A stretch of DNA of 64,000 nt. Source: Candidatus Nitrospinota bacterium M3_3B_026 (GTDB lineage: Bacteria; Nitrospinota_A; UBA7883; JBPRGF01). This document shows, in pieces, positions 11,657-28,464 of this stretch. A model generated the notes under the pieces. It saw only the letters and a list, made by a program, of their open reading frames with translations, was not told the DNA's origin and searched no databases. The stretch's first letter is position 1. The number at the start of each line of letters is the position of its first letter. Position numbers and translations under genes: made by a program. Location: assembly GCA_051418015.1 (NCBI GenBank), contig JBPRGF010000023.1:192001-256000 (forward strand). The letters are read 5' to 3'.

Positions 11657-12802
11657 ATGAATGAACACCACGGACAGAACAACGGCGCCAGGCTGATGGA
11701 CTCGTCCGGTCTGGACGCGCTCATCGCCGCCCTTGTCCGTGAGGGCCGCCGGGTCGTGGGGCCGGTGATCCGGGACGGGGCCATACTCCTCGACGAGATC
11801 AACGGCGTCGAAGACCTGCCGCGCGGCGTGTCGGACGAGCAGGACGCCGCATTCTACCGGCTCCGCGAGACCGGTGGGAATACCCTTTTCGGATATAACG
11901 CAGGCCCCCAACTCTGGAAAAAGTTTCTGTTTCCCCCGAGGCTTACTTTGTGGACGGCGAAGCGGAACGGCCAAGGCTTCGAGATCGAGCCGGACGGGGG
12001 GGAACCTGAGAAACTCGCCCTCCTCGGCGTCCGGCCCTGCGATCTGGCGGCGATAAGGATACAGGACAGGGTCTTCGCGGATGGCGAATTCAAGGACCTC
12101 TCATATGCGACGCGAAGGCGAAATATTTTCGCCATCGCCGTGAACTGCTCCCGCGCCGGGGGGACGTGCTTTTGCGCCTCCATGGGGACGGGACCGAAAG
12201 CTTCCGGTGAGTTCGACATCGCGCTCACGGAGATAGAAGACGAAGTGGGCCATCGTTTCCTGCTTGAAACAGGCTCGGCCGAAGGCGAAAGAGTTCTCGA
12301 AAACACATCCACCACGAAAGCCAGCGAGAACGACCTCATCGCCGCGAAGGCGATTCTCGAAAAGACCTCCCGGAGCATGGGCAGGAGGCTTGAAACGGAG
12401 GGCCTGAAAGAGATTTTGTACGAGTCCGCCGAAGGCAGGATTTGGGAGGACGCGGCTGAAAGATGCCTCGCCTGCGCTAATTGTACGATGGTGTGCCCCA
12501 CCTGTTTTTGCTCCACGGTGGAGGACATGACGGATCTTTCCGGCGATTTCACGAGGCGGGAGCGGCGCTGGGACTCGTGCTTCACGCTGGATTTTTCCTA
12601 CATCCACGGCGGGCCCGTCAGGAGGACGCGCGCGGCCCGGTACCGCCACTGGATAACCCATAAGCTAGCGTCGTGGATGGACCAGTTCGGGACGGCCGGG
12701 TGCACAGGGTGCGGGCGCTGCATCACATGGTGCCCCGCGGCGATAGACATTACGAAAGAGGCCCGGGCGGCGCGGGACGCGGCGGCCCGGGAGAAAGTAT
12801 GA
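11657..12802 (+). CDS. hydB: Group 3b [NiFe] hydrogenase (sulfhydrogenase-type) beta subunit, 4Fe-4S protein
   Basis: GVRPCD, CFC, CLACANCTMVCPTCFC and CTGCGRCITWCP clusters. Confidence 0.88.
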   Translation: MNEHHGQNNGARLMDSSGLDALIAALVREGRRVVGPVIRDGAILLDEINGVEDLPRGVSDEQDAAFYRLRETGGNTLFGYNAGPQLWKKFLFPPRLTLWTAKRNGQGFEIEPDGGEPEKLALLGVRPCDLAAIRIQDRVFADGEFKDLSYATRRRNIFAIAVNCSRAGGTCFCASMGTGPKASGEFDIALTEIEDEVGHRFLLETGSAEGERVLENTSTTKASENDLIAAKAILEKTSRSMGRRLETEGLKEILYESAEGRIWEDAAERCLACANCTMVCPTCFCSTVEDMTDLSGDFTRRERRWDSCFTLDFSYIHGGPVRRTRAARYRHWITHKLASWMDQFGTAGCTGCGRCITWCPAAIDITKEARAARDAAAREKV

Positions 12803-12824
12803 TTTTTCAAGGGGAGACGAGGCG

Positions 12825-13292
12825 ATGAGACCAAAATCCCTTGCGCCGGTACTGGAGGGGCACCCGTTCCTTGAGGGGATGGAGAAAAAGCACATCGACC
12901 TGATCGTGGGATGCGCCAAAAACGTCCGCTTCAACGCCGGGGACTACATCTTCCGCGAAGGCGAAGCGGCGAACGATTTCTACATCATCCGCCGGGGCCT
13001 CGTCTCGGTGGAGCTTTACAGCCCCCGGAAAGGCCCCATCTCCATCCAGACCCTTCGCGACGGCGACATACTCGGCTGGTCGTGGCTCATACCGCCACAC
13101 CAGTGGCGGTTCGACGCGCGGGCGGTGGAGACAACGAGGGCCATAGCGCTGGACGGCGGATGCCTGCGCGGGAAGCTGGAGGACGACCACGGCCTCGGCT
13201 ACCAGCTGCTGAAAAGATTCTCCCGGGTCATGGCAAAGACGCTCGAGGGCACGAGGCTCCAGCTGCTGGACCTTTACGGCGAAGGCGCATGA
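12825..13292 (+). CDS. Stand-alone cyclic-nucleotide-binding domain protein
   Basis: IFREGEAANDFYIIRRGLV...GDILGWSWL...RFDARA cNMP fold; no C-terminal HTH; stop overlaps the next ATG. Confidence 0.85.
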   Translation: MRPKSLAPVLEGHPFLEGMEKKHIDLIVGCAKNVRFNAGDYIFREGEAANDFYIIRRGLVSVELYSPRKGPISIQTLRDGDILGWSWLIPPHQWRFDARAVETTRAIALDGGCLRGKLEDDHGLGYQLLKRFSRVMAKTLEGTRLQLLDLYGEGA

Positions 13293-14143
13293 CGACGCCC
13301 GTTTCCATCAATCCCGGAGCGGACGCGGCGATCCCCGTTCCCTGGATGGTGACGGCCAGGAGGGAGCAGACGCGCGACGTCTTCACCCTCGAGCTTGCCC
13401 CGCCCGCCGGGATGGACGGTCTCCGGTTCGCGCCGGGCCAGTTCAACATGCTGTACCAGTTCGGCGCGGGCGAGGCGCCGATCTCCATCAGCGGCGACCC
13501 AGCGAGGACCGGCGCGCTGGAGCACACGATCCGGGCCGTCGGCGGCGTGACAAGGCTTATGGCCAGCCTTAGGGAAGGAGACGCCATCGGCGTCCGGGGC
13601 CCATACGGGCGTGGATGGCCGATGCCTGAGGCGGAGGGGAAAGACGTCGTCATCGCCGCGGGCGGGATCGGGCTGGCCCCGCTGCGCCCGGCGGTTCTTG
13701 GCATACTGGCGGAGCGGGAAAAATTTGGAAGAGTCGTCCTGTTTTACGGCGCGCGATCCGACGAGGACATAGTCTTCGAAGACGACCTGCGGGAATGGCG
13801 GTCGAGGTTCGACATGGAGATCGAGGTGACCGTCGACCGGGGGTCCGGCGGATGGCGCGGACCCGTCGGCGTCGTCACACAGCTTATTCCGCGGGCCGCC
13901 TTTGATCCCGCGAAAACGCTGGCCATGATATGCGGGCCGGAGGTGATGGCGAAGTTCACCGTGTCGGAGTTTTTAAGGCTCGGCGTTGAGCCGGGGAGGA
14001 TATACGTCTCCATGGAACGGAGCATGAAATGCGGAGTCGGCCTTTGCGGGCATTGCCAGATGGGCCCGCTTTTCGTCTGCAAGGACGGGCCGGTTTTCAC
14101 CTATGACAGCATCCGCCGCCTCATGGCTCTGCGGGAGATATAG
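13289..14143 (+). CDS. hydG: Group 3b hydrogenase gamma subunit (FAD/NAD(P)-binding, 2Fe-2S)
   Basis: PGQFNML, GPYGRGW, GGIGLAP, CGPEVM, MKCGVGLCGHCQ...CKDGPVF; ATG at 13289 (ATGA overlap), so the ORF-track extension from 12911 is spurious. Confidence 0.9.
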   Translation: MTTPVSINPGADAAIPVPWMVTARREQTRDVFTLELAPPAGMDGLRFAPGQFNMLYQFGAGEAPISISGDPARTGALEHTIRAVGGVTRLMASLREGDAIGVRGPYGRGWPMPEAEGKDVVIAAGGIGLAPLRPAVLGILAEREKFGRVVLFYGARSDEDIVFEDDLREWRSRFDMEIEVTVDRGSGGWRGPVGVVTQLIPRAAFDPAKTLAMICGPEVMAKFTVSEFLRLGVEPGRIYVSMERSMKCGVGLCGHCQMGPLFVCKDGPVFTYDSIRRLMALREI

Positions 14144-14908
14144 ATGAAAAAGAAACTGGCCGTCTTCAAGTTCGCCTCATGCGACGGCTGCCAGCTTTCG
14201 CTTCTCAACCTGGAGGACGAGCTTCTGGCCATCGCCGGCGCCATCGACATCGCCTATTTCCCCGAGGCGTCGCGGGAGTACGTCAAGGGGCCTTACGACC
14301 TTTCCCTGGTGGAAGGCTCCATAACCACCTCCCACGACGCGGAGCGGATCCAGAAGGTGAGGGAAAACTCGAAATTCCTCGTGACCATCGGCGCCTGCGC
14401 GACGGCGGGGGGCATCCAGGCGCTCCGGAATTTTCAGGACGTAAACGAGTTCATATCCGTGGTCTATGCCTCGCCGGAGTATATCAGCGCGCTCGGCGAG
14501 TCCACGCCCATCGCCGATCACGTCGCCGTGGACTTCGAGCTTCGCGGCTGCCCCGTGAACAAAGGGCAGCTGCTGGAGGTCGTAACGGCCTTCATCCACG
14601 GGAGAGCGCCAAAAGTCCCGGCCCACAGCGTCTGCCTGGACTGCAAGCTGGCGGGGAACGTCTGCGTGATGGTGGCCCGGAGTGAGCCGTGTCTTGGGCC
14701 CGTGACCCACACAGGCTGCGGCGCGCTCTGCCCGGCGTATCATCGCGGCTGCTACGGCTGTTTCGGGCCGATGGAGACGCCGAACACGCGCTCCATGGGC
14801 GGGCGGCTGAAGGCGCTGGGGCTTTCGGGGGAGGACGTCGTCCGCTCTTTCCGGGGCTTCAACGCCTGGGCGGAGGATTTCAGGGAGGCCGGCGGGGAGG
14901 ATGAGTGA
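14144..14908 (+). CDS. hydD: Group 3b hydrogenase delta (small) subunit
   Basis: [27 protein letters not shown]...[13 protein letters not shown]...CYGCFGP. Confidence 0.92.
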
Positions 14909-16196
14909 AACCAGGAAGATAAGGGTGGACTACCTCGCCCGCGTCGAGGGAGAGGGGGCTATGACATTGAAGATAAAGGACGGCGCCGTCTCCGGCGTGG
15001 CCCTTGAGATATTCGAGCCGCCACGCTTTTTCGAGGCTTTTTTGAGGGGGCGGAGATTCCAGGAAGCGCCGGACATCACCGCCCGGATATGCGGCATATG
15101 CCCCATCGCCTACCAGATGAGCGCCGTCCACGCCATGGAGGACGCGCTGGGGGTCGCCGTCGACGGGGCCACGAGGGATCTTCGCAGGCTGATCTACTGC
15201 GGCGAGTGGATAGAAAGCCACGCCCTCCACGTCTACATGCTCCATGCCCCCGATTTCCTCGGGTACGAAAGCGCCATCCACATGGCAAAAGACCACCCGG
15301 AAATAGTAAAACGCGGTCTTTTTATAAAGAAGGCGGGCAACGCCATCGTCTCGCTTCTTGGCGGCAGGGAGGTTCACCCCATAAACGTCCGGGTGGGGGG
15401 TTTTTACAGGTTGCCGCGAGCTGGCGAGCTTTCCGGCCTGGAGGAGACTCTCAAAAGAGCCAGGGACGAGGCCGTGGAAACCGTGAAATGGGCCGCCGCC
15501 CTCCCCTTCCCCGAGTTTGAGAGGGATTATGTCTTCGTGGCGTTGTCTCATGAAAGAGAGTATCCCTTCAACGAGGGAAGAATCACCTCCACCGGCGGGC
15601 TCGACATCCCTGTCAGCGACTACGAAAAACATTTCGAGGAGGAGCACGCCGCCCATTCCACGGCCCTGCGCTCGAAGATAAAGGGAGGCGGCGCGTACAT
15701 GACCGGGCCGATGGCGCGGTATAGCATCAACTTCGGGAAGCTGCGGCCGATAGCGGTGGAAACGGCGCGGGCGGCGGGCCTTGCGCCGTACATCACGAAC
15801 CCGTACAAGAGCATAGCCGTCCGCGCCGTGGAGATTCTCCACGCCATAGACGAGGCGCTGCGGATCATCGGGGACGGAAAGCTTCCCGAAAAGCCGTTCG
15901 TGGAGGCGGAGCCCTCCGAGTCCACGGGATACGGCGCGACGGAGGCGCCGCGGGGGCTTCTCTACCACAGGTACACGCTTGACGAGAGCGGGCTGATAAC
16001 GAGCGCCAGGATCGTCCCCCCCACGTCGCAGAACCAGCGGATAATCGAGGAGGACCTTTTCAAGGCCGCCTCCGAAAACCTCCGCCTGCCCGACGATGAG
16101 CTTACGTTACGGCTGGAACAGACGATAAGGAACTATGACCCGTGCATATCCTGCTCCACGCATTTTCTGAAGCTGAAAATAGAACATGAACGGTAA
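14901..16196 (+). CDS. hydA: Group 3b [NiFe] hydrogenase alpha (large) subunit
   Basis: ARVEGEG, L1 [16 protein letters not shown]2 DPCISCSTH with short cleavable tail. Confidence 0.95.
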
Positions 16197-16662
16197 GGTC
16201 CTCATAGGCGTCGGGTCCGAGGATCGCGGCGACGACGCCGCAGGGCTCAGGATCGTCCGCGCCCTCAGGGACATGGTTCCCAGGAGCGTCGAGGTGGTGG
16301 AGGCGCCGGGCGAGGGAGCGCGTATAATGGAGGCTTGGCAGGGTTTTCATTTCACGCGGGTGTTCGACGCCGTCTCCTCCGGCGCGCCGCCGGGGACGAT
16401 CGTAAAGCTCGACCCGCGTAAGGACCCCTTTCCCGCGGCCTTTTTTCGCAGTTCCTCCCACACTTTCGGCCTGGCGGAGGCGGTGGAGCTTGCGCGGTCG
16501 CTCGGCGCTCTTCCGCCGTCTCTCATGATCTACGGGGTGGAGGGGAAGGACTACGGGCTGGGGCGGGGGCTCTCGGCGGAGGTGTCCGCCGCCGTGGATG
16601 AGATCGTGGAGATGGTCAAAAAGGAGATGCTCTCTTCGCCATCCATGGGAGATGATGGCTAG
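16186..16662 (+). CDS. Hydrogenase maturation protease
   Basis: [23 protein letters not shown] motifs; directly after the large subunit. Confidence 0.9.
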
Positions 16663-17180
16663 GACTTGGAGAACCGCTCCGACACGGAGTCGAAGCCTAT
16701 GACCACCTTGTCGCGGCTTTCGAGGGTGACCGTCCCTTCGAAAGAGTGGCCGAACGTCTCGTCCCCGTCCCTGGTGTCCTTTATGGCCACTTTTATCGCA
16801 TGCGAGCCGAGGGGCAGGATGAACTTCTCGTAGACATACGTGGCGCTGTCCTGCCTTATGCCCGATGGGACGATCTGCTTGTCCAGGGCGGTTTCGCCGT
16901 CGATCCACACCTTGAGCCGCAGGGGGACGCGTTCCCGGCTGCCGCAAACCCTGTCCGCCCGCTGCATGTGCGGGCGTCTCAGCTTGGCCTCCTTTTTGAA
17001 CTCTTCGAGCTCCTCCTCGTCGCACAGGCTCCTGCGCTCGGTCACTCTCTTGAACGATATGATGACCCCCCCCACGTCGTCGCTGTAATAGCTGTAGGAC
17101 GGCGAGTCGGAAAGAAAATACACCAGCGGCGCGGGGGACAAAAGCAGGATCACGGCCCAGACCGTCAGTCTATCCTTCAT
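16659..17180 (-). CDS. Membrane-anchored hypothetical protein coupled to the cytochrome b fusion
   Basis: N-terminal hydrophobic segment, two Cys, beta-rich soluble domain; ATGA overlap with the upstream gene stop. Confidence 0.7.
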   Translation of the reverse strand: MKDRLTVWAVILLLSPAPLVYFLSDSPSYSYYSDDVGGVIISFKRVTERRSLCDEEELEEFKKEAKLRRPHMQRADRVCGSRERVPLRLKVWIDGETALDKQIVPSGIRQDSATYVYEKFILPLGSHAIKVAIKDTRDGDETFGHSFEGTVTLESRDKVVIGFDSVSERFSKS

Positions 17181-18856
17181 TTCAGCGCGCCCTCCATGTC
17201 GTTGGCGGCGGTCTTTCCGCCGGATGGTTTTCTGACGATCTCCAGGAACTTCTTTATGTCCGCCACCACTTCCTCGTCCTCAAACCTCGACACCAGCATG
17301 ACTTTTATCCGCTCCCCCGCGCTCTCGTCCACTCCGGTGATGTTCGCCGGGTCCGTCGCCTCCTCGATCCGCTCGTTGCCTTCCCTGTAATGGCAGTCCA
17401 GCGGCCTGCAGCCCACGACCACGACCCCCTTCGCGCCGTCCTTGAACGCCGCTCCCACAAGGTCCGGCTCCAGGACGCCGGCGCAGGGGATGACCATCAC
17501 GGCCGCCGCGGGCTCGCCGGCAAGGCTTCTCTCGTCGTCCGACAGGACGTTCGAGAGGGTCATGCTCCGCTCGCACATGAAGCAGAGGATGACCGGCTTC
17601 TCCCCCTCCGCGGGCGCCATAAGGGACTTTATGTCCTCCAGCATCGAATCCCGCGTCATCTCCCCCATGGATATCCCGGACGTGGGGCACGCCGTCACGC
17701 AGAACCCGCATCCCTCGCACCGCGCCGGGAATATTTCCACCTGTGTGTCGTATGGTCTTCCGTCCGTTCTGGGAGTTATGCTCACCGCCTCGAAAGGGCA
17801 GACCGGCTGGCAGAGGTTGCATCCTTTGCATTTTTCAAGGTCTACCAGCGCGAACTGTTTTCGGGCTTTTTTTTTTGCCGCCGCCTTTCGCTTCTCACGC
17901 TCCAGCGCCGGCGCGGGGATGAGCCATGGCAGGGCCGTGAAAAGCGCGAGGGCCGCGGAGCCGGCGATCCACATCGCGCCGGGGGCGACCCTGAAGGCGT
18001 CCATGAAGGGGAACGGGATCAGGTAGAACCAGTCTATCTCCACTCTTCCTAAAAGCTTCGAAAGGTCCGCGGGTCCCATACTGACGGCCGGTTTCACGAG
18101 GGAGAGGCCCAGCAGGCCCGCCAGTATGACCAACGCCACCGGCCGCGGCGGGGAGATCAGGGGCCTGGAAAGGCGCATGTAGTGGATCCAGGCCATTATC
18201 AACAGGAAACAGGGGATCATGAGATGCAGGTAGTTGGTCACGAAAAAGAGCACGCTCGTGACCGTCTCGTTGGTCAGGAACGTCCTGGAGACGGGCTCCA
18301 CGGTGATGGGGAGGGCGTCCAGCAGGCGGGCGAACTCCACGGCCACCATCTTCCCCTTCTCGTCCCACACCAGCACGTAGCCGGATATCCCCTCGAACCA
18401 GACCCAGAACAGGATCACCGAGCCGGAGACCCACGCCACCCATCTAGCGCGCCTGAACCGGTCGGAGAAAAAGACCTGGGCCACGTGCAGAAGGATGGAT
18501 ATGGCCAGCCCGTCGGCGGCGTAGCGGTGCATGGAGCGCATTATGCCGCCGTAATATTTCTGCTCCTTGGTGATGTATTGTACGGACTCGTAGGCCCCTT
18601 CCACGCTCATATCGTAAAAGAGGAACAGGTATGACCCGGTGATGATGAGGATCCAGAACAGGAACAGGGATATGGCCCCGAGGAAGTACATGGGGTTCAG
18701 CCTCGGCGGGAAGATCTTGTTCAGCTGCTCCTGGATGAAGACCAGCGTCGTGTTGCCGGGCCGCAATATCCAGGGGATAAGCTCATTCTGGTACGTCTTG
18801 GAGGCCCTTTTCAGGGACCTTTCGAGTTCTCTCTCCTTGTCCGTGTCTTGTCTCAT
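17177..18856 (-). CDS. Cytochrome b domain + 2x[4Fe-4S] ferredoxin + MvhD/FlpD-like [2Fe-2S] fusion protein
   Basis: RSMHRYAAD..LLHVAQVF and YLHL..WIHY heme His pairs; CKGCNLCQPVCP and CEGCGFCVTACP; FMC..IPCAG..GCRPLDCHYREGN. Confidence 0.88.
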   Translation of the reverse strand: MRQDTDKERELERSLKRASKTYQNELIPWILRPGNTTLVFIQEQLNKIFPPRLNPMYFLGAISLFLFWILIITGSYLFLFYDMSVEGAYESVQYITKEQKYYGGIMRSMHRYAADGLAISILLHVAQVFFSDRFRRARWVAWVSGSVILFWVWFEGISGYVLVWDEKGKMVAVEFARLLDALPITVEPVSRTFLTNETVTSVLFFVTNYLHLMIPCFLLIMAWIHYMRLSRPLISPPRPVALVILAGLLGLSLVKPAVSMGPADLSKLLGRVEIDWFYLIPFPFMDAFRVAPGAMWIAGSAALALFTALPWLIPAPALEREKRKAAAKKKARKQFALVDLEKCKGCNLCQPVCPFEAVSITPRTDGRPYDTQVEIFPARCEGCGFCVTACPTSGISMGEMTRDSMLEDIKSLMAPAEGEKPVILCFMCERSMTLSNVLSDDERSLAGEPAAAVMVIPCAGVLEPDLVGAAFKDGAKGVVVVGCRPLDCHYREGNERIEEATDPANITGVDESAGERIKVMLVSRFEDEEVVADIKKFLEIVRKPSGGKTAANDMEGALK

Positions 18857-18905: not shown

Positions 18906-19721
18906 TTAGGAGGCTTGCGCGCCCCTCGCGCGGCCTGAGTGGCGGGAGAAAAGATGGGCTATCCTGCCCCGCAACAGGTAAACGACAGTGGCCACTATCA
19001 GGATGTACTGCAAAATGACTGCGAAGACAAACGTGTAATCGACCTTGTAGGTCTTGGTGACGGGATCGTAGTTCGAGCAGTAGATCAACAGCTTTGACAG
19101 GGCGCTGGTCATCCTCCCCTGCGCCGTGCGGCCGGCGAGGACATCCCGGACGGCGTTCTCCACTTCCGCGGGATCGTAGTCCACTCCGTAGAAATGCCTG
19201 GCGACGGAGCCGTCGGGCGCGACGAGGGTGAGGCGGTTCAGGTGATCGAGGCTGTCCGCCTTCTTCTCGTAGGAAAAGCCGAGGTCCGACACCATCATCC
19301 CCAGCGTCTCGTCGTCGGTGGTCGTGAATATCCATCTTTCGAAATTGTCCGCGAAAGCCGCGCCGTACTCCCTGAGCCTGGCGGGGTTGTCGTTATGGTT
19401 GTCGATGCTTATCGACAGCGTCATCAGCTTCCCGGCGACGGCCGGGTCGATGGCCGCCAACATGTTTTTAAGGCTCTCGTTTATGAGCCAGCAAGGGCCG
19501 TGGCAGTCCACGTACATGAAGCTTACGAGGACGGGCCTGCCTTTCAGGCTGTGGAACGGGAGGTAGTCCCCGTCCTGCGTAATAAGCCTGTAGTTTCGCA
19601 CCTTCCGCCCCACCGCCAGCTCCGAGCGCTCCAGGACCGAAGCCCCAGGCGCGGCCGGCGCCGTGGCGGAAAGCGGCGAAACGATCAGAACAACCGCTAA
19701 TACCAGCGCACGTTTCAGCAT
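18906..19721 (-). CDS. SCO1/SenC family copper chaperone
   Basis: Signal peptide, CHGPC (CxxxC), SISID, conserved His (LDHLNR), C-terminal YCSNYDP plus TM. Confidence 0.88.
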   Translation of the reverse strand: MLKRALVLAVVLIVSPLSATAPAAPGASVLERSELAVGRKVRNYRLITQDGDYLPFHSLKGRPVLVSFMYVDCHGPCWLINESLKNMLAAIDPAVAGKLMTLSISIDNHNDNPARLREYGAAFADNFERWIFTTTDDETLGMMVSDLGFSYEKKADSLDHLNRLTLVAPDGSVARHFYGVDYDPAEVENAVRDVLAGRTAQGRMTSALSKLLIYCSNYDPVTKTYKVDYTFVFAVILQYILIVATVVYLLRGRIAHLFSRHSGRARGAQAS

Positions 19722-19742: not shown

Positions 19743-19794
19743 AAAAACCGCCGCGGCTCCGGGCCGGTGGTGTTACCCCCGCCGGAGCCGCGGC
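19743..19794 (-). terminator. Intrinsic terminator-like hairpin between the small subunit gene and SCO
   Basis: 13-bp stem GCCGCGGCTCCGG (19750-19762) / CCGGAGCCGCGGC (19782-19794), followed on the minus strand by GGTTTTT. Confidence 0.6.
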
Positions 19795-19811
19795 TCCCCT
19801 CTCTAAGCGCG

Positions 19812-19940
19812 TCAACCCACCTTCCATACTCCTACAAGATACTTCCAGTTGAGGAAGTAGAAGGCCACGAACGTAATGAAAAATATGATGATGATGGCGA
19901 ACGAGCCTTTCGGCCTGTGTTCGTCTCTCTCTTCAACCAT
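19812..19940 (-). CDS. 42-aa single-TM subunit, resembling subunit IIa of B-family heme-copper oxidases (not in ORF track)
   Basis: Hand translation MVEERDEHRPKGSFAIIIIFFITFVAFYFLNWKYLVGVWKVG*; SD GGAGGTG just upstream; immediately after subunit I. Confidence 0.75.
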   Translation of the reverse strand: MVEERDEHRPKGSFAIIIIFFITFVAFYFLNWKYLVGVWKVG

Positions 19941-19970: not shown

Positions 19971-21491
19971 TCAAGCCTCGATCTTTTTGCCGACTAGCAG
20001 CGTCCCGACGGCCACCAACACATACATGGCGCCGCCCAGCACCGCTATGACGCCGCCGATGCCCACGATCGCCATCGAAAGGTCCACGATGGGCCCGAAG
20101 TTGACGGCGAAGGGCGAATCCGCCCCGGTCATGTCCCAGCTTCTCCTGGGCACGCCGAACACCCCGGCGAACATCATGAAGATGCACAGCAGGTACATCC
20201 CTATGCCATAGACGTAGGGCTGGGCCTTGGCTATGCCCTTGAAGGCCACCTCGCGCCTGAATATGAGAGGCAGCACGTAGTAGGTCACGCCCATGAAGGC
20301 CATCGTCGTGCCCGCCACCACTGTGGCGTGGAAATGGCCGGGGACGCGGATGGTGTTGTGGACGACTATGTTCAGCTGCTCCGTGCCGTATATGACGCCG
20401 GAGATGCCTCCCAGGAAGCCGAAGCCCACCATCGAGAACCACAGCGAGGACCATCCCGGATCGCCCCACGGGGCCTTCTTGAGCCACTCGAAAAGACCGG
20501 CGGTGTAGCCCTTCTTCCTGAGCGCCACCTCCGTCGCCGCCGGCACGGAGAAGGCGTGGATCATCGAGGCCAGCACAGCAAGGTGCATGAAGTACCCCGT
20601 GTTCCACGACTTGTGCGCCGCCGAGAGGCCCGGGTCGACCAGCAGGTGGTGCTCCGAGGCTATCAGGATGAACAAGATGTAAAGGCCGAAAGCGATGCGG
20701 CTGACCTTCTCGTTGATCGGCGTGGAGCCGACCGTCAATGTCCCCAGAAGGTACCAGACAGCCACCATGGCGCAGACGTTTATCTGCTGCGACGAGTGGC
20801 CGAAGCCCCAGAACAGCAGCCTGTAGACCTCCGCGTCCATCATGGGGATGAGCCCCAGGGCCCACAGCCACGTGGGGATAAAAGTGGCCGCTCCATGCGC
20901 CAGGGTCAGTATGGCGATGATCGCCGCCGCCATGGCCCCGAAGGTCACAAGCGGGACGGAGCCTTCGTAGGTCTTGTCCCTCTTGGCCACCGCCAGCGTG
21001 GCGAAAAAGACCACGCAACCCACGATGGCGCCCACGGCGAAGAGTATCACGCCGAGGTAGTACCAATGGTCGGCCTTCAAGGGGATGTACGAGGTGAACA
21101 TCACGTCCGCCTTGCCGAGCAGTATCTCCACCGCCGCTATTGCGGCTCCGCCCAGCATCAGCAGATACGCCAGCCACCCGGCCCATGGCGCGGCCAGCCT
21201 GGTGTTCAGCAACACCGCGGACGCGAAGTAGAGCACAGCTATCTCGAAGAAGATGATCCACGCCACCAGCATGGCGATCCCGTGCAGGGTCAGCAGCCGG
21301 TAGAACCACTCGTCATTGAGTATGTGCACGGCCTGCCACCTGGTGAGGACCATGAACAGCCCGATTATCCCCCCCACGAGGAGGAACACGATCGAAGTCA
21401 CCGCGTTGACCTGTATCAGGGTCTGCGCGGGAAGGTGTATCTTGAAACCGGTTGTCGGACAGGTTCTGAACCGTCCTTCTTGCTCCGCCAT
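19971..21491 (-). CDS. Heme-copper oxidoreductase subunit I, eNOR-type nitric oxide reductase (B-family derived)
   Basis: Polytopic; LTLHG, FWGFGHSSQQINV (Gln at the His+4 Tyr position), SEHHLL, PGHFH, GVPRR; divergent from nirS. Confidence 0.82.
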   Translation of the reverse strand: MAEQEGRFRTCPTTGFKIHLPAQTLIQVNAVTSIVFLLVGGIIGLFMVLTRWQAVHILNDEWFYRLLTLHGIAMLVAWIIFFEIAVLYFASAVLLNTRLAAPWAGWLAYLLMLGGAAIAAVEILLGKADVMFTSYIPLKADHWYYLGVILFAVGAIVGCVVFFATLAVAKRDKTYEGSVPLVTFGAMAAAIIAILTLAHGAATFIPTWLWALGLIPMMDAEVYRLLFWGFGHSSQQINVCAMVAVWYLLGTLTVGSTPINEKVSRIAFGLYILFILIASEHHLLVDPGLSAAHKSWNTGYFMHLAVLASMIHAFSVPAATEVALRKKGYTAGLFEWLKKAPWGDPGWSSLWFSMVGFGFLGGISGVIYGTEQLNIVVHNTIRVPGHFHATVVAGTTMAFMGVTYYVLPLIFRREVAFKGIAKAQPYVYGIGMYLLCIFMMFAGVFGVPRRSWDMTGADSPFAVNFGPIVDLSMAIVGIGGVIAVLGGAMYVLVAVGTLLVGKKIEA

Positions 21492-21504
21492 AAGCCCCCC
21501 CTAC

Positions 21505-22032
21505 CTATTCAACGTATATCTTGCCGAACATCAGGTGATGCCCGATGCCGCAGAACTCGTTGCAGATTATGGTGTACTCCCCGGCTTTCGTCGGCGTGAT
21601 GGTCAGCACCGAGTCCCACCCGGGGACGGCCTGGAAGTTCATGTTCAAAGGATAGATCGAAAAACCGTGGTTCACGTCCACGGAGGACAGATGCAGCCTG
21701 TAGGTCTGGCCCGCCTTGAGCTTCAGGATGGGGTCCCACGACCACTGGGCGGCTCTCATGAAGGCGTCGCTGTTGGGAGGAGGCTCCACGACCGGGATTC
21801 CTTCCTCCTCGCCCACCTTGTACTTCTCTATGAACTTATCGGTCAGGTTGTAGAAATCGTCGGTGGTGAGCTTGTAGTACTCCTGCGGCGGGTTCTGCTC
21901 CCCGATTATATGCCAGGCCGGCATAATAAGTGTTATCAATATGCACCATATCAGCGCGATGGTGATCCATATCTTCTCCTCCGCATGGAGAGGACTGCGC
22001 CACCAGTGCCGCGCGGGCGAATGAATGCTCAT
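21505..22032 (-). CDS. Heme-copper oxidoreductase subunit II (CuA)
   Basis: Single TM; DVNHGF and CNEFCGIGHHLM CuA ligands. Confidence 0.92.
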   Translation of the reverse strand: MSIHSPARHWWRSPLHAEEKIWITIALIWCILITLIMPAWHIIGEQNPPQEYYKLTTDDFYNLTDKFIEKYKVGEEEGIPVVEPPPNSDAFMRAAQWSWDPILKLKAGQTYRLHLSSVDVNHGFSIYPLNMNFQAVPGWDSVLTITPTKAGEYTIICNEFCGIGHHLMFGKIYVE

Positions 22033-22054: not shown

Positions 22055-22225
22055 TCACCCTTTGACCAAAGGAGACGTGGCGACGCTGCCCAACTCCACA
22101 AGTCCCCAGACGGTGTACAACAGCAGGAAAATCGCCGCCCCGAGGAAAAACAGCAGATACACGTCATCGAAAAACACCTGCCAGAAAGATACCGGCTCCT
22201 CTTCCCGCGCCTCTTCTTGTTCCAT
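22055..22225 (-). CDS. 56-aa single-TM protein, first gene of the eNOR-type operon
   Basis: MEQEEAREEEPVSFWQVFFDDVYLLFFLGAAIFLLLYTVWGLVELG...; G-rich SD before ATG 22225. Confidence 0.7.
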   Translation of the reverse strand: MEQEEAREEEPVSFWQVFFDDVYLLFFLGAAIFLLLYTVWGLVELGSVATSPLVKG

Positions 22226-22361
22226 ATGACTTCCCCCCTTTAATCTAAGGTTCGCCAAAGATGAGGATCACGCCTGTAGCGCCGGCTCCGTCGCCGGGTA
22301 CCGCGCCGCGCGCCGCGATCACGCTCAAACCGGCGCTCATGCGCCACGCTCTTACCGCGTT

Positions 22362-22404
22362 TTTATATCGGCAACCATCGGTAAAAGCTATGATAAAAGT
22401 CATA
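22362..22404 (-). promoter_or_regulatory. Crp/Fnr-type operator plus -10 for the eNOR-type operon
   Basis: Minus strand TATGACTTTTATCATA (22404-22389), N21, TATAAA (22367-22362). Confidence 0.7.
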
Positions 22405-22654: not shown

Positions 22655-22697
22655 TATGACTTTAATCATATCGTCCGGCCGGAGTCCCGTTTATAAA
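22655..22697 (+). promoter_or_regulatory. Crp/Fnr-type operator plus -10 for the nirS operon
   Basis: TATGACTTTAATCATA (22655-22670), N21, TATAAA (22692-22697); mirror image of the site at 22362-22404. Confidence 0.7.
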
Positions 22698-22739
22698 CGG
22701 TATTAAGCAGCGAATAAGACTTTTTTTTGGGGGGGACAC

Positions 22740-24344
22740 ATGAAAAGATATTTCTTTCTGTTCGCGCTGAGTCTTGCGTTAATCACCACGTTTTACACGC
22801 CACAAGCCCTGGCGGAGCCCGAAGCGCCACCGTTGAACCAGGATGAATGGCACATCGCCAAGAGCATCTACTTCAACAGGTGCGCCGGCTGCCACGGCAC
22901 CCTGAGGAAAGGCGCCACGGGGCCCAACCTCCTTCCGGAGAAGACCCTCGAATTCGGCACGGAGACCATCAGGAGCTTCATTATGGAGGGGACCGAGGGG
23001 GGCATGCCGGCCTTCGGCAGGGGCGGAATCCTGACGCCGGAGGAGGTCGACATCATGGCCAGGTTCGTCCAGCATGACCCCGTGGCCCCGCCGGAGATGT
23101 CGCTGGCGGACATGATGGAAAGCTGGAACCTTGTCGTGCCGCCGAACAAGAGGCCGAAAAAGCCGGCCCACAACAGGAACTGGCAGAACTTCTTCGGCGT
23201 GGTCCTGCGCGACGCTGGCCAGGTGGCCATCATCGACGGCGACACCAAGGAGAAGGTATCCACCGTCAACACAGGCTTCGCGGTGCACATCCTGCGCGCC
23301 TCGGCGTCGGGCCGGTATATCTTCTCAATCGGCCGCGACGGCAAGGCGACCATGATCGACACCTGGATGAAAAAGCCGTCCATCGTGGCCGAGGTCAAGA
23401 CCTGCTCCGAGGCCCGCTCCATCGACACCAGCAAATACGAAGGCTACGAGGACAAGTACGCCGTGGTGGGCTGCTACTGGCCGCCGCACTTCGTCGTCCT
23501 GAACGGCGCCACGCTGGAGCCGATGAAAATCGTCAGCACCAGAAGCTACACCTACGACTCGTATGAGTACCATCCCGAGCCCCGCGTGGCGGCGATCGTC
23601 TCCTCGCACTACAGCCCGGAGTGGGTCCTGAACGTCAAGGAGACGGGCTACGTCTGGCTGGTCGATTACTCCGATATCGAGAACATGAAGATCACCCAGA
23701 TCGAGTCTGAGCGCTTCCTTCACGACGGGGGCTGGGACGCCAAGCACCGCTACTTCATGGCGGCGGCGAACATGCGCGACACCATGGTTGTCATAGACAC
23801 CAAGACCAGGAAGAAGGTGGCGCAGTTCAAGGTCGGCACCAAGCCGCACCCGGGCCGCGGCGGAAACTGGGTCGACCCGAAATACGGCCCCGTCTCGGGC
23901 ACGGTGCACCTCGGCGAGGGACTGCTCTCGGTGTGGGGGTCCGACCCTGAGGGTCACCCGGAACACGCCTGGAAGGTCGTGAGAAGCATCGAGCTTCCCG
24001 GCGGCGCCGGCAGCCTGTTCATGAAGACCCACCCCAAGAGCAAACACATGTGGATGGACTTCACCCTGAACCCGGACCCGAAGAACCATCGCAGCGTATG
24101 CGTGATGGACATCAACAAGCCTAACACCAAGGACCTGAACTGTTTCCAGGTGACCGACCACGGACGCGTCGTGCACATGGAGTACAACAAGAAAGGGGAC
24201 GAGGTGTGGCTGAGCGTCTGGGACAAGGAGGGCGAGCTGGTCATCTACGACGACAGGACCCTGAAGGTCAAGAAGAGGATCAAGGGTCTTCGCACTCCCA
24301 CGGGCAAGTTCAACGTGTACAACACGCAGCACGACATCTACTGA
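22740..24344 (+). CDS. nirS: Cytochrome cd1 nitrite reductase
   Basis: Signal peptide, CAGCHGTLRKGATG, GFAVHI, YHPEPRVAAI, FLHDGGWD, PHPGRG, C-terminal TPTGKFNVYNT. Confidence 0.96.
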   Translation: MKRYFFLFALSLALITTFYTPQALAEPEAPPLNQDEWHIAKSIYFNRCAGCHGTLRKGATGPNLLPEKTLEFGTETIRSFIMEGTEGGMPAFGRGGILTPEEVDIMARFVQHDPVAPPEMSLADMMESWNLVVPPNKRPKKPAHNRNWQNFFGVVLRDAGQVAIIDGDTKEKVSTVNTGFAVHILRASASGRYIFSIGRDGKATMIDTWMKKPSIVAEVKTCSEARSIDTSKYEGYEDKYAVVGCYWPPHFVVLNGATLEPMKIVSTRSYTYDSYEYHPEPRVAAIVSSHYSPEWVLNVKETGYVWLVDYSDIENMKITQIESERFLHDGGWDAKHRYFMAAANMRDTMVVIDTKTRKKVAQFKVGTKPHPGRGGNWVDPKYGPVSGTVHLGEGLLSVWGSDPEGHPEHAWKVVRSIELPGGAGSLFMKTHPKSKHMWMDFTLNPDPKNHRSVCVMDINKPNTKDLNCFQVTDHGRVVHMEYNKKGDEVWLSVWDKEGELVIYDDRTLKVKKRIKGLRTPTGKFNVYNTQHDIY

Positions 24345-24370
24345 TGGCAAGCGCGCGGTAACACCGTTGA

Positions 24371-24407
24371 GGGCGCCCCGGCGCGGCGGCAAGCCCCCGG
24401 GGCGCCC
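24371..24407 (+). other. GC-rich stem-loop after nirS (mRNA stabiliser or weak terminator)
   Basis: GGGCGCCCCGG / CCGGGGCGCCC 11-bp stem with no U-tract. Confidence 0.5.
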
Positions 24408-24427
24408 CGAATTAAAAGAGGCGCATT

Positions 24428-26143
24428 ATGACCTCGCCATCCATGACGCGGATCGCGGCTCTCATCCTTGCGCCGGTGTTTATCTCCGGCCCCGGATCGG
24501 CCTTCGCCGAAACTTCCGCGAAGAACCTCTATGGGGAGCATTGCGCGAGCTGCCATCACCCGAAAAGGCTGGGGCTCACGGCCCCTCCCTTGATACCGGG
24601 TCTTTTTTCAAGAAGCGCCAAGGGCCGCCTGCCCCAAATAATCCGCGACGGGCTTCCGGCCACGCGGATGCCGGCTTTCGGCGGCGAGCTTTCTGATGAA
24701 CAGATAAAACTTCTGGCGGAACTCATACAAGAACCGGCGAAGGAGTTGGACTGGACTTTTGAGGACATACGGTCTAGCAAGATTGACATTGACGAGCCTG
24801 GAAAAGTTTTAAGAGCCGACATCGAGAATATAACGCTGGTCATGGAGCGCGGGACGCAGAGCCTCGTCGTTCTGGACGGCGCGGATTTCAGCGAGCTCGG
24901 CAGGTTCCACGTGGGCGCCGTCCACGGCGGGCCGAAGTTTTCGTATTCCCTGGATCGTGTGTACGCCCTTGCCAGGGACGGGATACTGACAAGCTATAAT
25001 CTGAGAGCCCTTTCCGCCGAGACCAGGCTCAAGGCGGGGATAAACTCCCGCTCCGTCGCCGTATCAAGCGGCGACAAAACGGTGGCCGTGGCCAATTACC
25101 TTCCGTCCAACGTCGTCCTTTTCGACAAAGACCTGGAGCCCGTCGGCGAGATACCACTGCCCGGAAAGGCGGGGGGGTTCTACTCGCTGCCGTCCCTGAA
25201 AAGCTTCGCCCTGTCGTTCAGGGAGATTCCGGAACTCTGGATAATCGGCGAGAGCCCGCCTTTCGAGATCGAAAAACGAAAGCTGCCCGAGGCTTTCCAG
25301 GATTTTTCGGTCAGTCCCGTCAAGCCTTACATAATCGGGACGAAACGGGGCGGCGATCATATGTACATCTACGACTACATGGAGGACAGGATACTCAAAA
25401 AGATCCCCACCAGCGGCCTGCCGCACCTGGCCTCGGCCGCGTTCTACATACACAAGGGCGAGCTTTTCGCCGGGGTCAACCACATAAAAAAGCCAGCGGC
25501 CACGATCATATCCCTCGACCGGCTCGACAAGGTGGCCGAGATACCCCTTCCCGGCGCGGGCTTTTTCGTCCGGACGCATCATGCCACGCCGTACCTGTGG
25601 ATAGATACCGAGACGGAGCGGATCGCCCTCGTGAACAAGGACGACTTCTCCGATATCCGCTACCTGACGCCCCACGAGGGGCGCAAGGCGATGCACGTGG
25701 AATTCACCAAGGAGGGCGCCCGCGCCCTGGTCACCATCCCGGGCAGGGGCGGCGAGGTGGTCATATACGACGCGAAGACCCTGGAAAAGATCAACGCCAT
25801 CCCCTTCGAACGGCCCGTCGGCAAGTACAACGCCACGAACAAGACGTACCCGGGCAGATCGCTCGCGGCGCGGAAGGCGGATGGGGCCAGCGCGGGCAAA
25901 CAGGTCTTCGACAAATACTGCATGGGGTGCCACCACCAGGTCTACGAGGCGTTCGGGCCATCCTTCACCCGGATAGCCAGGGAGAGGGGCGCGGCAAGGA
26001 TAAAGTTTCACATCCTGTCGCCCGAGGCCAGCGCAAAGACCCTGGGGTACAAGAGAAACTCCATGCCCAGGATAAAACTTTCGCCGGAGCAGCTGGAGGC
26101 GATAGTCAGATACATAAAAAGCTTCGGCCAGACGGGGGGATAA
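24428..26143 (+). CDS. nirN: NirN-like heme d1 biosynthesis protein with an extra C-terminal c-type cytochrome domain
   Basis: N-terminal CASCH..RLG..PPL, d1 beta-propeller (VHGGPKFS, PHL, GFFVRTH, HVEFT, PVGKYN), second CMGCH at the C-terminus. Confidence 0.8.
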   Translation: MTSPSMTRIAALILAPVFISGPGSAFAETSAKNLYGEHCASCHHPKRLGLTAPPLIPGLFSRSAKGRLPQIIRDGLPATRMPAFGGELSDEQIKLLAELIQEPAKELDWTFEDIRSSKIDIDEPGKVLRADIENITLVMERGTQSLVVLDGADFSELGRFHVGAVHGGPKFSYSLDRVYALARDGILTSYNLRALSAETRLKAGINSRSVAVSSGDKTVAVANYLPSNVVLFDKDLEPVGEIPLPGKAGGFYSLPSLKSFALSFREIPELWIIGESPPFEIEKRKLPEAFQDFSVSPVKPYIIGTKRGGDHMYIYDYMEDRILKKIPTSGLPHLASAAFYIHKGELFAGVNHIKKPAATIISLDRLDKVAEIPLPGAGFFVRTHHATPYLWIDTETERIALVNKDDFSDIRYLTPHEGRKAMHVEFTKEGARALVTIPGRGGEVVIYDAKTLEKINAIPFERPVGKYNATNKTYPGRSLAARKADGASAGKQVFDKYCMGCHHQVYEAFGPSFTRIARERGAARIKFHILSPEASAKTLGYKRNSMPRIKLSPEQLEAIVRYIKSFGQTGG

Positions 26144-26144
26144 G

Positions 26145-27314
26145 ATGTTCAGACTAAGCCATTATTACAACATAGCTGAAGGGCGCGCGGGCCGCGGCGG
26201 AAAGTCCCATGGCGCCAGATGCGGCGGGAAGCCGATCGTGATATGGAACCTCACGAGGACATGCAACCTCTCGTGCGTCCATTGCTACGCCTCGTCGAAG
26301 GCGCGCGGCTACAGCAGGGAGCTTTCCACGGAGCAGGCCGTCTCGGTCATGGACGGCCTTTACGCCGCCGGGGTGAGAACGGTCATCCTCTCCGGCGGCG
26401 AGCCGATGATCCGCGGGGATATCCTTAACCTTGCCGCAAGCGCTAAAGAAAAAGGCTTCATGACCTCCATCTCCACCAACGGCACACTTATAGGAGAGAA
26501 GGAGGCGGACAGGATAGCCGCCGCGGGGCTGGACTACGTCGGCGTGAGCCTGGACGGCATCGGCGAGACCCACGACCGCGTCCGGGGCGTCGAAGGCTCT
26601 TTCGAGCAGGCCGTGGCGGGGCTTTTCAGGCTGGCGGAGCGGGGGGTAAAATGCGGCGTGCGTTTCACGCTGACGAGGATGAACATGAACGACCTGCCGG
26701 CGATCTTCGAGTTCGCCGAGAAGAACGGGATAGGGAAAATATATTTATCACACCTCGTCTACTCCGGCAGGGGTGGCGTCAATCGGGGGGAGGACGTCAC
26801 CCCGGCTGAGACGAGGGAAGCGATGGATTACGTTTTCAGCAAGGCGCGGGAGTACACGCGGCGCGGGCGCGGGCCGCAGATCGTCACCGGGAACAACGAC
26901 GCCGACGCCGCGTACCTGCTCCTGCGTCTCATGGAGGGGAGCCCGGAGGGGGCCGAGCGGCTCCTGCCGGTGATGGAGAGGTTCGGCGGGGCCAACGCCG
27001 GGGTGGGGGTCGCGAACATAGACCCCACCGGTGAGGTCCACCCCGATCCTCTCATGTCCTCCGTGAACCTGGGGAACGTCACCGAAAAATCTTTCGGTGA
27101 GATATGGCATGACTCCGAAAACCCCGTCCTGAAAAGGCTCCGGGCGAGGCCCCGCGTCTTCAACGGCCGGTGCGGACGGTGCGCCTGGCTGAAGGTGTGC
27201 GGCGGCTCCTGCCGCGTCCGGGCTCTGCGGATGACGGGGGACATGTGGGGTCACGACCCCGCCTGCTACCTTACCGACGAGGAAACCCAGGTTGAGCTTG
27301 CGCAGGCTGTATAG
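26145..27314 (+). CDS. nirJ: Radical SAM/SPASM heme d1 biosynthesis protein
   Basis: MFRLS start, VIWNLTRTCNLSCVHCY, SGGEP, GNNDAD, CGRC...CGGSCR..DPACY; located between nirN and nirF. Confidence 0.88.
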   Translation: MFRLSHYYNIAEGRAGRGGKSHGARCGGKPIVIWNLTRTCNLSCVHCYASSKARGYSRELSTEQAVSVMDGLYAAGVRTVILSGGEPMIRGDILNLAASAKEKGFMTSISTNGTLIGEKEADRIAAAGLDYVGVSLDGIGETHDRVRGVEGSFEQAVAGLFRLAERGVKCGVRFTLTRMNMNDLPAIFEFAEKNGIGKIYLSHLVYSGRGGVNRGEDVTPAETREAMDYVFSKAREYTRRGRGPQIVTGNNDADAAYLLLRLMEGSPEGAERLLPVMERFGGANAGVGVANIDPTGEVHPDPLMSSVNLGNVTEKSFGEIWHDSENPVLKRLRARPRVFNGRCGRCAWLKVCGGSCRVRALRMTGDMWGHDPACYLTDEETQVELAQAV

Positions 27315-28464
27315 CGCTGTTATCCCGGCCGTTCTCGCGCTCGCGGCAGCAGCGGCGACAGCGGGCGAGTGGGGCACGGGGGCGCTCATGGTGGTCATCG
27401 AGCGCGAAAGCGGCTCCGTCCTGGTCATAGACTCCGCCCAGGACCACAAAGTCCTGGGCAGGATAGAGGGTCTCGGCGTACTGCATCACGCATCGGTCTC
27501 CTTCTCCCGCGGCGGGCGCTACGGCTACGTCGTCAGCCGCGACGGCTTTTTGAGCAAGATCGACCTTCTGAGGCTCGAAGTCACCGCCAGGGTGAAGGTG
27601 GGAGAGAGCGCCATCGGGCTGGCTGTCACGCAGGACGGGAAACATATCGCCATCAGCAATTACAAGCCGGGGAACATCGTCATCGTCTCCGATGAGACTT
27701 TTGAGATCGTAAAGACCATAGACGCCGACGAGTCGAAGACCGTCGGCCTCGTGGACGCCCCGGAGAACAGGCTGGTGGTCTCTTTAATGGACGCGAACGA
27801 GATATGGGTAATAGACGCGAACGATCCGGATTTCCCCGTCATCAAAAAGTTCAAGGACGTCGGCGAGAAGCCATACGACGGCCTGCTGACTCCCGACGGG
27901 CGGTATTACATCGCCGGGCTTTTCCATTCCCCGTGGGCGGCGATGGTGGACCTCTGGAGCATGGACGGGGTTGAAAAAATCCCGCTGCCCGTCCCGCCCG
28001 AAAAAAAGGACAAACCGCCGGTCCTGAAGATCCCCCACCTGGAGGGGTGGATCATGGCCGGGCAGGGCCTTTTCGCGCCGGTGATAGGCGGCTCCGGGCT
28101 GGCGCTGATCGACATGGAGACATGGAAGGTAAAGAAGGTGATAGACCTGCTGGCATACCCCGTCTTCGCCATGGCCCAGCCGGACATGAGGAGGATATGG
28201 ACCAACTACGTCCTGGGCGAACACCACGACACCGTGCAGGTCGTGGACGTGAAAACCCTCGAGGTGGTCAAAACCCTCAAACCCGGCGACAAAATTTTCC
28301 ACATGCAGTTCACGCCCAAGGGCGGCGCCGTCTACCTCTCCTCCAACGGCGACGACAAGGTCCTGATCTACGACACGAAGACTTTTGGGCTTGTCAGGGA
28401 GATATCAGCCAGAAAACCATCCGGGATATTCTCAAGCGCCCGCTCCGCCACCTTCGGGCTGTGA
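27292..28464 (+). CDS. nirF: Periplasmic heme d1 biosynthesis/insertion protein
   Basis: Signal peptide, GTGAL.VVIER, HASVSFS..GRYGYV.SRDG, PYDGL, KIPHLEGW, PSGIFS.ARS..FGL. Confidence 0.88.
   Translation: MSLRRLYSAVIPAVLALAAAAATAGEWGTGALMVVIERESGSVLVIDSAQDHKVLGRIEGLGVLHHASVSFSRGGRYGYVVSRDGFLSKIDLLRLEVTARVKVGESAIGLAVTQDGKHIAISNYKPGNIVIVSDETFEIVKTIDADESKTVGLVDAPENRLVVSLMDANEIWVIDANDPDFPVIKKFKDVGEKPYDGLLTPDGRYYIAGLFHSPWAAMVDLWSMDGVEKIPLPVPPEKKDKPPVLKIPHLEGWIMAGQGLFAPVIGGSGLALIDMETWKVKKVIDLLAYPVFAMAQPDMRRIWTNYVLGEHHDTVQVVDVKTLEVVKTLKPGDKIFHMQFTPKGGAVYLSSNGDDKVLIYDTKTFGLVREISARKPSGIFSSARSATFGL

Follow-up and report, generated by a model that had tools for sequence, protein, structure and literature searches.

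A putative eNOR cassette divergent from nirS

The window, the whole 64,000-nucleotide stretch of contig JBPRGF010000023.1 (positions 192,001 to 256,000) from Candidatus Nitrospinota bacterium M3_3B_026, contains two adjacent genes for a haem-copper enzyme that resembles a cytochrome oxidase and likely belongs to the eNOR-type NO reductases. The genes belong to a cassette that is divergent from nirS, with 514 bp between the two. The features are listed below.

16659..17180, minus strand: 173-aa membrane-anchored protein without a family match; closes the cassette
17177..18856, minus strand: cytochrome b, [4Fe-4S] and MvhD/FlpD fusion; a recurrent eNOR partner
18906..19721, minus strand: SCO1/SenC copper chaperone (PF02630, E=7e-13)
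19812..19940, minus strand: subunit IIa homologue of 42 aa with a single helix; weak PDB match to ba3 subunit IIa
19971..21491, minus strand: putative eNOR subunit I (506 aa), modelled with 12 long helices and carrying six His plus Q236, Y247, S309 and H312
21505..22032, minus strand: putative eNOR subunit II, 175 aa, single membrane helix and CuA domain, with Glu19 at the predicted entrance of the channel
22055..22225, minus strand: 56-aa membrane peptide; opens the cassette and is conserved upstream of subunit II
22362..22403, minus strand: predicted promoter for the eNOR cassette, of class II Crp/Fnr type (14-bp box, 22390-22403; 22 nt; TATAAA), with a predicted transcript start near 22355
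22656..22697, plus strand: predicted promoter for nirS, of class II Crp/Fnr type (box nearly identical, 22656-22669; 22 nt; TATAAA), with a predicted transcript start near 22704
22740-24344, plus strand: nirS (Cytochrom_D1, E=7e-131)
22740..28464, plus strand: nirS, nirN-like, nirJ and nirF-like genes for cd1 nitrite reductase and haem d1, from which NO is predicted to arise

The cassette reads 56-aa peptide, subunit II, subunit I, 42-aa peptide, SCO protein, cytochrome b-[4Fe-4S]-MvhD fusion and 173-aa protein. The opening peptide has no meaningful PDB match and no match in Pfam or NCBIfam. For the 42-aa peptide, ba3 subunit IIa is the top PDB match, at a weak E=0.069; in many other, longer eNORs this helix is clearly fused to the C-terminus of subunit I. 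The SCO1/SenC protein likely serves CuA assembly. The cytochrome b fusion recurs, in either gene order, in 72 of the 83 eNOR loci examined (counted from the locus listing), and is missing from some full-length flanks (for example L013, L127 and L129). Genes for haem O/A synthases are absent from the cassette; ctaA and ctaB sit elsewhere in the genome, after the A-family oxidase genes and in that operon.

Further features surround the cassette. A GC-rich inverted repeat, read directly from the sequence, lies between the IIa and SCO genes (19750-19796) and may represent a REP-like element or a hairpin that stabilises the transcript. The NirN-like protein (24428-26143) carries a cytochrome c domain at each end. 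A group 3b-type NiFe hydrogenase operon and a stand-alone cNMP-domain gene (11657-16662) converge on the cassette. We considered a functional link to this hydrogenase and rejected it, as the large subunit was found beside eNOR in 0 of 17 Nitrospinota-lineage loci.

Active-site residues point to an eNOR

Subunit I matches COX1 (E=5e-63), and no NCBIfam oxidase model comes near its cut-off (best score 71 bits against 671). The initial annotation had read a full set of six metal and haem histidines from this gene, and all are present: H70 and H388 at the low-spin haem positions, H386 at the high-spin haem position, and H232, H281 and H282 at the non-haem metal positions. It had also noted a Gln on helix VI in place of the cross-linked Tyr of O2 reductases. 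That reading holds, as the helix runs G-H232-S-S-Q-Q236 and Q236 shares a column with the cross-link Tyr in phmmer alignments to ba3-type PDB chains. The CuA site that it placed in subunit II has its full ligand set (H122, C157, E159, C161, H165 and M168), and Glu19 and the CuA-motif region are kept in 81 of 81 aligned loci.

These residues correspond to the published signature of the R. marinus eNOR, which consists of Q245, Y256, S318, H321 and E(II)21 (Dataset S1, PMC11214002). Q236, Y247, S309 and H312 match the subunit I residues, each shifted by 9, and subunit II has Glu19 for E(II)21. The Gln criterion for eNOR is also given in PMC8756737. An alignment of 241 proteins (the query and 240 matches) shows that H232, Q236, Y247, H281, H282, H312 and H386 are invariant in all 241, as is S or T at position 309. 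Position 388 is His in 218 of them and Lys in 23, the latter a known eNOR variant according to PMC11214002.

Other haem-copper classes fit less well. Residues at the Tyr site are Tyr in B1 oxidases, Asn in bNOR and sNOR, and Glu in nNOR (Dataset S1, PMC11214002). All nine Tyr control proteins have Tyr at the cross-link site; the window protein has Gln236 there, four residues past the helix VI His, and not the cross-linked Tyr of a B-family O2 reductase. The same Gln separates it from bNOR and sNOR, which have Asn, and from nNOR, cNOR and qNOR, which have Glu as a fourth metal ligand. As for the C family (cbb3), the ccoN model scores 24.6 bits against a cut-off of 583, the partner is a CuA subunit II, and the helix VII Tyr position holds I275. 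The protein also differs from gNOR, having no Asp at the active-site His and a subunit II with CuA ligands. The pair combines Gln at the Tyr site, K-channel-like residues, the three metal His with the haem ligands, and a CuA subunit II, as in eNOR.

Phylogeny, fold and annotation of relatives

The initial annotation had proposed placing subunit I in a phylogeny of the haem-copper superfamily. In our tree of 44 rows (47 were built, and L017, L036 and L039 were left out for wrong frames; the R. marinus protein is not among the rows), it does not cluster with the Tyr O2 reductases. All 32 Gln proteins, the window protein included, fall on one side of a branch with support 100/99, and the nine Tyr proteins form a separate clade (96/99). 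Three outgroup rows are long branches of unsure placement. The nearest named relatives come from Nitrospinota MAGs (68-83% identity), followed mostly by Gemmatimonadota at ~60%. Beside the query in the tree is a protein from MAG UBA7883 (locus L007; 76% identical), whose species, matched by name, is scored ENOR=1 in Dataset S8 of PMC11214002. In the same table, three UBA9942 Nitrospinota and T. roseum are likewise given ENOR=1, and the Gln clade of our tree holds proteins of two species so scored. Among the homologues is the Thermus protein WP_015717644.1, which PMC8756737 names in its eNOR alignment.

By sequence, the closest solved structures are ba3-type B-family oxidases (E ~1e-39), and these are also the closest folds (TM 0.84-0.89; model pLDDT 89.8). 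No eNOR structure appears in either the sequence-match or the fold-match list. The similarity to B-family oxidases (Thermus thermophilus ba3, 1EHK/3S8F; Aquifex-type 7DEG) extends to the six His, CuA, a subunit IIa-like peptide and a K-channel-like path; unlike them, the window enzyme has Gln for the cross-link Tyr and His for the channel Thr312, shares ~25% identity and belongs to a separate clade.

Close homologues are labelled "cbb3-type cytochrome c oxidase subunit I" by NCBI. The initial annotation had stated that eNORs are often mistaken for oxidases; published work already describes this, as well as the family and its signature (PMC11214002, PMC8756737, bioRxiv 10.64898/2026.01.22.701106). 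The eNOR identity it proposed is likewise supported by the Gln site, the channel residues at constant offset, CuA, the B-family fold and the all-Gln clade. Thus, judging from residue tables, the tree and genome-level calls, the window protein likely belongs to the eNOR family.

In one relative (L016, 1-9506), a single contig carries two eNOR-type sets of subunits II and I, which share 71% and 57% identity with the query; a weak COX1-like gene follows one of the sets.

A Glu280/His293 subclade

Glu280 directly precedes the metal-binding His pair. It occurs in 59 of the 241 homologues and is paired with His293 in 59 of those 59; the other 182 have Ala or Val at 280 with Trp, Tyr or Phe at 293. 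All 17 Nitrospinota-lineage loci have E280/H293, and none of the other 63 loci does. The pairing is probably one evolutionary event, and we therefore treat it as a lead only. The subclade offers a natural variant for probing proton transfer in eNOR.

A conserved box and a candidate regulator for nirS and the eNOR cassette

The pattern of box and -10 element occurs twice in the window and in 0 of 100 shuffles. Its spacing puts the box at -41.5, the class II Crp/Fnr position. The initial annotation had the operon and nirS share a promoter region. nirS is indeed divergent across the gap; however, there are two separate, mirror-image predicted promoters and not one shared site.

The box is conserved among relatives. 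An exact copy lies within 300 nt upstream of the eNOR cassette in 13 of 22 usable loci. Once the genome from which the box was taken is set aside, 12 of 21 relatives have it, with ~0.03 expected. No box was found in the 450 nt that lie upstream of ccoN, nirK, the cox operon and the gNOR-like and NosZ-like genes. Elsewhere in the genome, it precedes genes for a ScdA_N/DUF542 protein and a DUF1858 membrane protein, which look like nitrosative-stress genes. A perfect box before ctaA (C29:166478) suggested co-regulated haem A synthesis, a candidate we rejected; the coxA-ctaA gap contains a box with up to one mismatch in none of 10 relatives, so the ctaA box is not relied on.

The strongest Crp/Fnr match of the genome (C24:53447-54157) contains a single Cys, lacks the FNR cysteine motif and has a box upstream. 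Across the phylum, 27 of 33 genomes encode it. Of 25 loci examined, 16 have the box upstream with at most one mismatch (nine exactly), and Phe-Glu occupies the specificity positions (CRP 180/181) in all 25. Rodionov et al. 2005 (PMC1274295) link the regulator specificity positions to box sequence and describe DNR, NnrR and HcpR as lacking the FNR cysteines. The system described here shares with those regulons a 14-bp TGA-N-TCA palindrome at the promoters of nir and nor genes and a candidate regulator without the FNR cysteine motif. It differs in that the box starts ATGAC/ATGAT where theirs start TTGAT/TTGAC (PMC1274295), and in the Phe-Glu pair of the candidate. We infer that this regulator may bind the box and sense NO. 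The conserved box and candidate regulator together allow a direct, cheap test of co-regulation. In the same region (L165; C24:52349-54157), the candidate is divergent from a COX1-like/DUF1858 membrane protein gene, with a box in between.

Other NO, O2 and N2O genes

Subunit I is the sole PF00115 match in the window, in keeping with the initial statement that no norBC or qnor is encoded there. The genome is 97% complete. By inspection, none of its seven PF00115 matches is a cNOR or qNOR, and the qNOR N-terminal family PF22085 was found in 0 of 33 genomes. The COX1-type set consists of A-family and cbb3 O2 reductases, the eNOR, a gNOR-like protein, a degenerate COX1-like protein and two short COX1-like matches. 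The gNOR-like pair (L131; C33:485468-487726) is intact, with Asp at the helix VI His site and a subunit II without CuA cysteines. Because this enzyme is also encoded, eNOR is not the sole candidate NO sink.

A NirK-like protein (171 bits against a cut-off of 296) is a predicted second NO source beside NirS. Neither Nap nor Nar was found in the genome, and a search for Hcp as an alternative NO sink also found none. We rejected a flavodiiron NO reductase: of two ODP-domain matches, one leaves no room for a flavodoxin domain and the other lies in a 248-aa frame.

The genome also encodes a NosZ-like protein of 598 aa (C17:267728-269524; L130:9729-11525, minus strand), which scores 602 bits on the clade III model (cut-off 700), 167 on the clade II model and 123 on the clade I model. 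Its CuA and propeller His residues are conserved in 20 of 20 loci, and cytochrome b6-like genes adjoin it. As its orthologues, present in 20 of 33 genomes, all score below the cut-off, the NCBIfam model would miss this lineage. Clade III nosZ has already been reported in Nitrospinota.

Two other loci deserve mention. The degenerate COX1-like protein (L132; C14:100849-102198; 449 aa) retains the His of the haem and of helix VI and lacks the His pair; in many relatives, weak COX1 matches of this kind adjoin cox, cbb3 or eNOR genes. It is possibly a haem-handling maturation factor. At the second locus (L135; C23:513-6172), two di-haem peroxidase-like genes accompany an arsenite-oxidase-like molybdoenzyme (411 bits, TIGR02693), a layout that we take to resemble the idrABP1P2 iodate reductase cluster.

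Distribution across the phylum

We surveyed 33 genomes of the phylum, many of them incomplete and related genomes not being independent. eNOR was found in 23, NosZ-like genes in 20, nirS in 15, nirK in 13, napA in 5 and gNOR-like genes in 3. Fourteen genomes combine Nir, eNOR and NosZ-like genes, two of them with napA as well. Many of these organisms may thus make and consume N2O. eNOR occurs in 14 of the 15 nirS genomes and in 9 of the 18 without nirS. Given incomplete genomes, no Nir was found by two queries in 4 of the 23 eNOR genomes, and no eNOR in 5 of the 24 Nir genomes.

The initial annotation had taken the pairing with nirS as contextual support for eNOR function. The common box and the co-occurrence in 14 of 15 nirS genomes uphold this. 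Adjacency does so less: the two are divergent neighbours in only 5 of the 15 nirS genomes and on different contigs in 9, and the gNOR-like enzyme and NirK further loosen the pairing. As contextual evidence, the regulator box that the two have in common outweighs nirS adjacency.

Proposed mechanism and alternatives

Given the observed residues, fold, tree position, gene order and boxes, the two genes very probably encode a CuA-fed, B-family-derived haem-copper eNOR with Gln236 that likely reduces NO to N2O. We infer its substrate, metal, haem type and proton path, together with the identity and signal of its regulator, as follows. Electrons would pass from a periplasmic cytochrome c to CuA, then via the bis-His low-spin haem to the site of the high-spin haem and non-haem metal (H232, H281 and H282), which would couple two NO into N2O in a two-electron reaction. 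Having no redox-active Tyr, this site should not run four-electron O2 chemistry; NO coupling would still be possible. Protons would come from the cytoplasm by way of Glu19 of subunit II, S309, H312 and Y247, and this origin would make NO reduction electrogenic. A Crp/Fnr regulator without the FNR cysteine motif would turn on nirS and the eNOR cassette jointly via the two matching class II promoters, so that NO from NirS (and NirK) would be consumed by eNOR.

We transfer the NO-reducing chemistry from the R. marinus eNOR, by analogy. That enzyme is reported to reduce NO and not O2, and its authors saw no migrated Tyr (PMC11214002). Within the cited literature, NO reductase activity has been measured in one family member and is slow, with a kcat of 0.68 per s at 25 C (PMC11214002). 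A modified haem a is a further eNOR trait, and ctaA and ctaB are present in this genome outside the cassette. An eNOR role also fits a genome already supplied with A- and C-family O2 reductases; against it count the absence of haem O/A synthase genes from the cassette and E280/H293, unlike most eNORs.

The B-family fold, the CuA subunit, the invariant Y271 and Y300 and the NCBI label of close homologues could instead suggest a high-affinity B-family O2 reductase or scavenger, in which another Tyr replaces that of helix VI and which shields NirS under microoxic conditions. We consider this very unlikely. The Tyr of the C family sits on helix VII six residues before the His pair, a position held here by I275, and Y271 lies ten before. 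Furthermore, subunit I falls outside the Tyr-enzyme group in the tree, and the R. marinus enzyme shows neither O2 reduction nor a migrated Tyr in the account of PMC11214002. It is also very unlikely that the gNOR-like enzyme is the main NO sink, with eNOR secondary or idle. The genome does hold its intact subunit I with the helix VI Asp and its subunit II without CuA cysteines; however, the enzyme occurs in 3 of 33 genomes against 23 for eNOR, its gene has no box upstream, and gNOR activity is itself only predicted, as stated in PMC11214002.

An eNOR that reduces NO mainly for detoxification, whatever the NO source, and not as energy-conserving respiration tied to NirS, has the same chemistry as the mechanism proposed here and differs from it in purpose. 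The box is common to the nitrosative-stress-like genes (ScdA_N/DUF542 and DUF1858), half of the genomes without nirS (9 of 18) have eNOR, and no Nar or Nap was found in this genome. The full conservation of the predicted proton-channel residues, the presence of eNOR in nearly all nirS genomes (14 of 15) and a NosZ-like gene that could use up the N2O product speak against it, and we regard detoxification as rather unlikely. On a wider reading, this Nitrospinota lineage may be an overlooked nitrite-to-N2 denitrifier whose components (NirS/NirK, eNOR and a clade III NosZ-like enzyme, combined in 14 of 33 genomes) escape standard screens; a single NO-sensing Crp/Fnr regulator with altered specificity would govern nirS and eNOR, and Glu280/His293, beside the metal-binding His pair, would change proton handling. 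We offer this tentatively, giving it somewhat less than an even chance.

Relation to known systems

The enzyme type is known, and the gene itself is an ordinary eNOR family member; Nitrospinota eNORs are already tabulated in the supplement of PMC11214002. As described by Murali et al. 2024 (PMC11214002), the R. marinus eNOR has the same Gln site, S/H/Y channel residues, subunit II Glu, CuA subunit, B-family ancestry and bis-His low-spin haem site. Compared with the family as presented there, the window enzyme has subunit IIa as its own gene, no haem O/A synthase in the cassette, and Glu280/His293 for Ala/Trp within a Nitrospinota-centred subclade (59 of 241 homologues). The eNOR operons of Ferrigenium straubiae (as reported in bioRxiv 10.64898/2026.01.22.701106) and of a Defluviimonas plasmid likewise cluster subunits II and I, SCO, cytochrome b-FeS and a small gene. 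Both of those clusters, as reported, carry a haem O synthase that is absent here; unlike in them, the cytochrome b-FeS protein here ends in MvhD/FlpD and the cassette stands head to head with nirS. We also drew on bioRxiv 2021.10.15.464467 and PMC13477213.

Our findings correct an annotation, in that close homologues of an eNOR bear a cbb3 label at NCBI. They also bear on the nitrogen metabolism of the phylum. Kop et al. 2024 (PMC10839748) report that norBC and nosZ are absent phylum-wide, so that reduction ends at nitrite or NO; the eNOR (23 of 33 genomes) and clade III NosZ-like (20 of 33) genes put this end point in doubt.

Outside the phylum, ten Thermus thermophilus plasmid records (L129 and related plasmids) encode an eNOR whose second low-spin haem ligand position is Lys, and in the single record inspected a nirK-like gene adjoins it.
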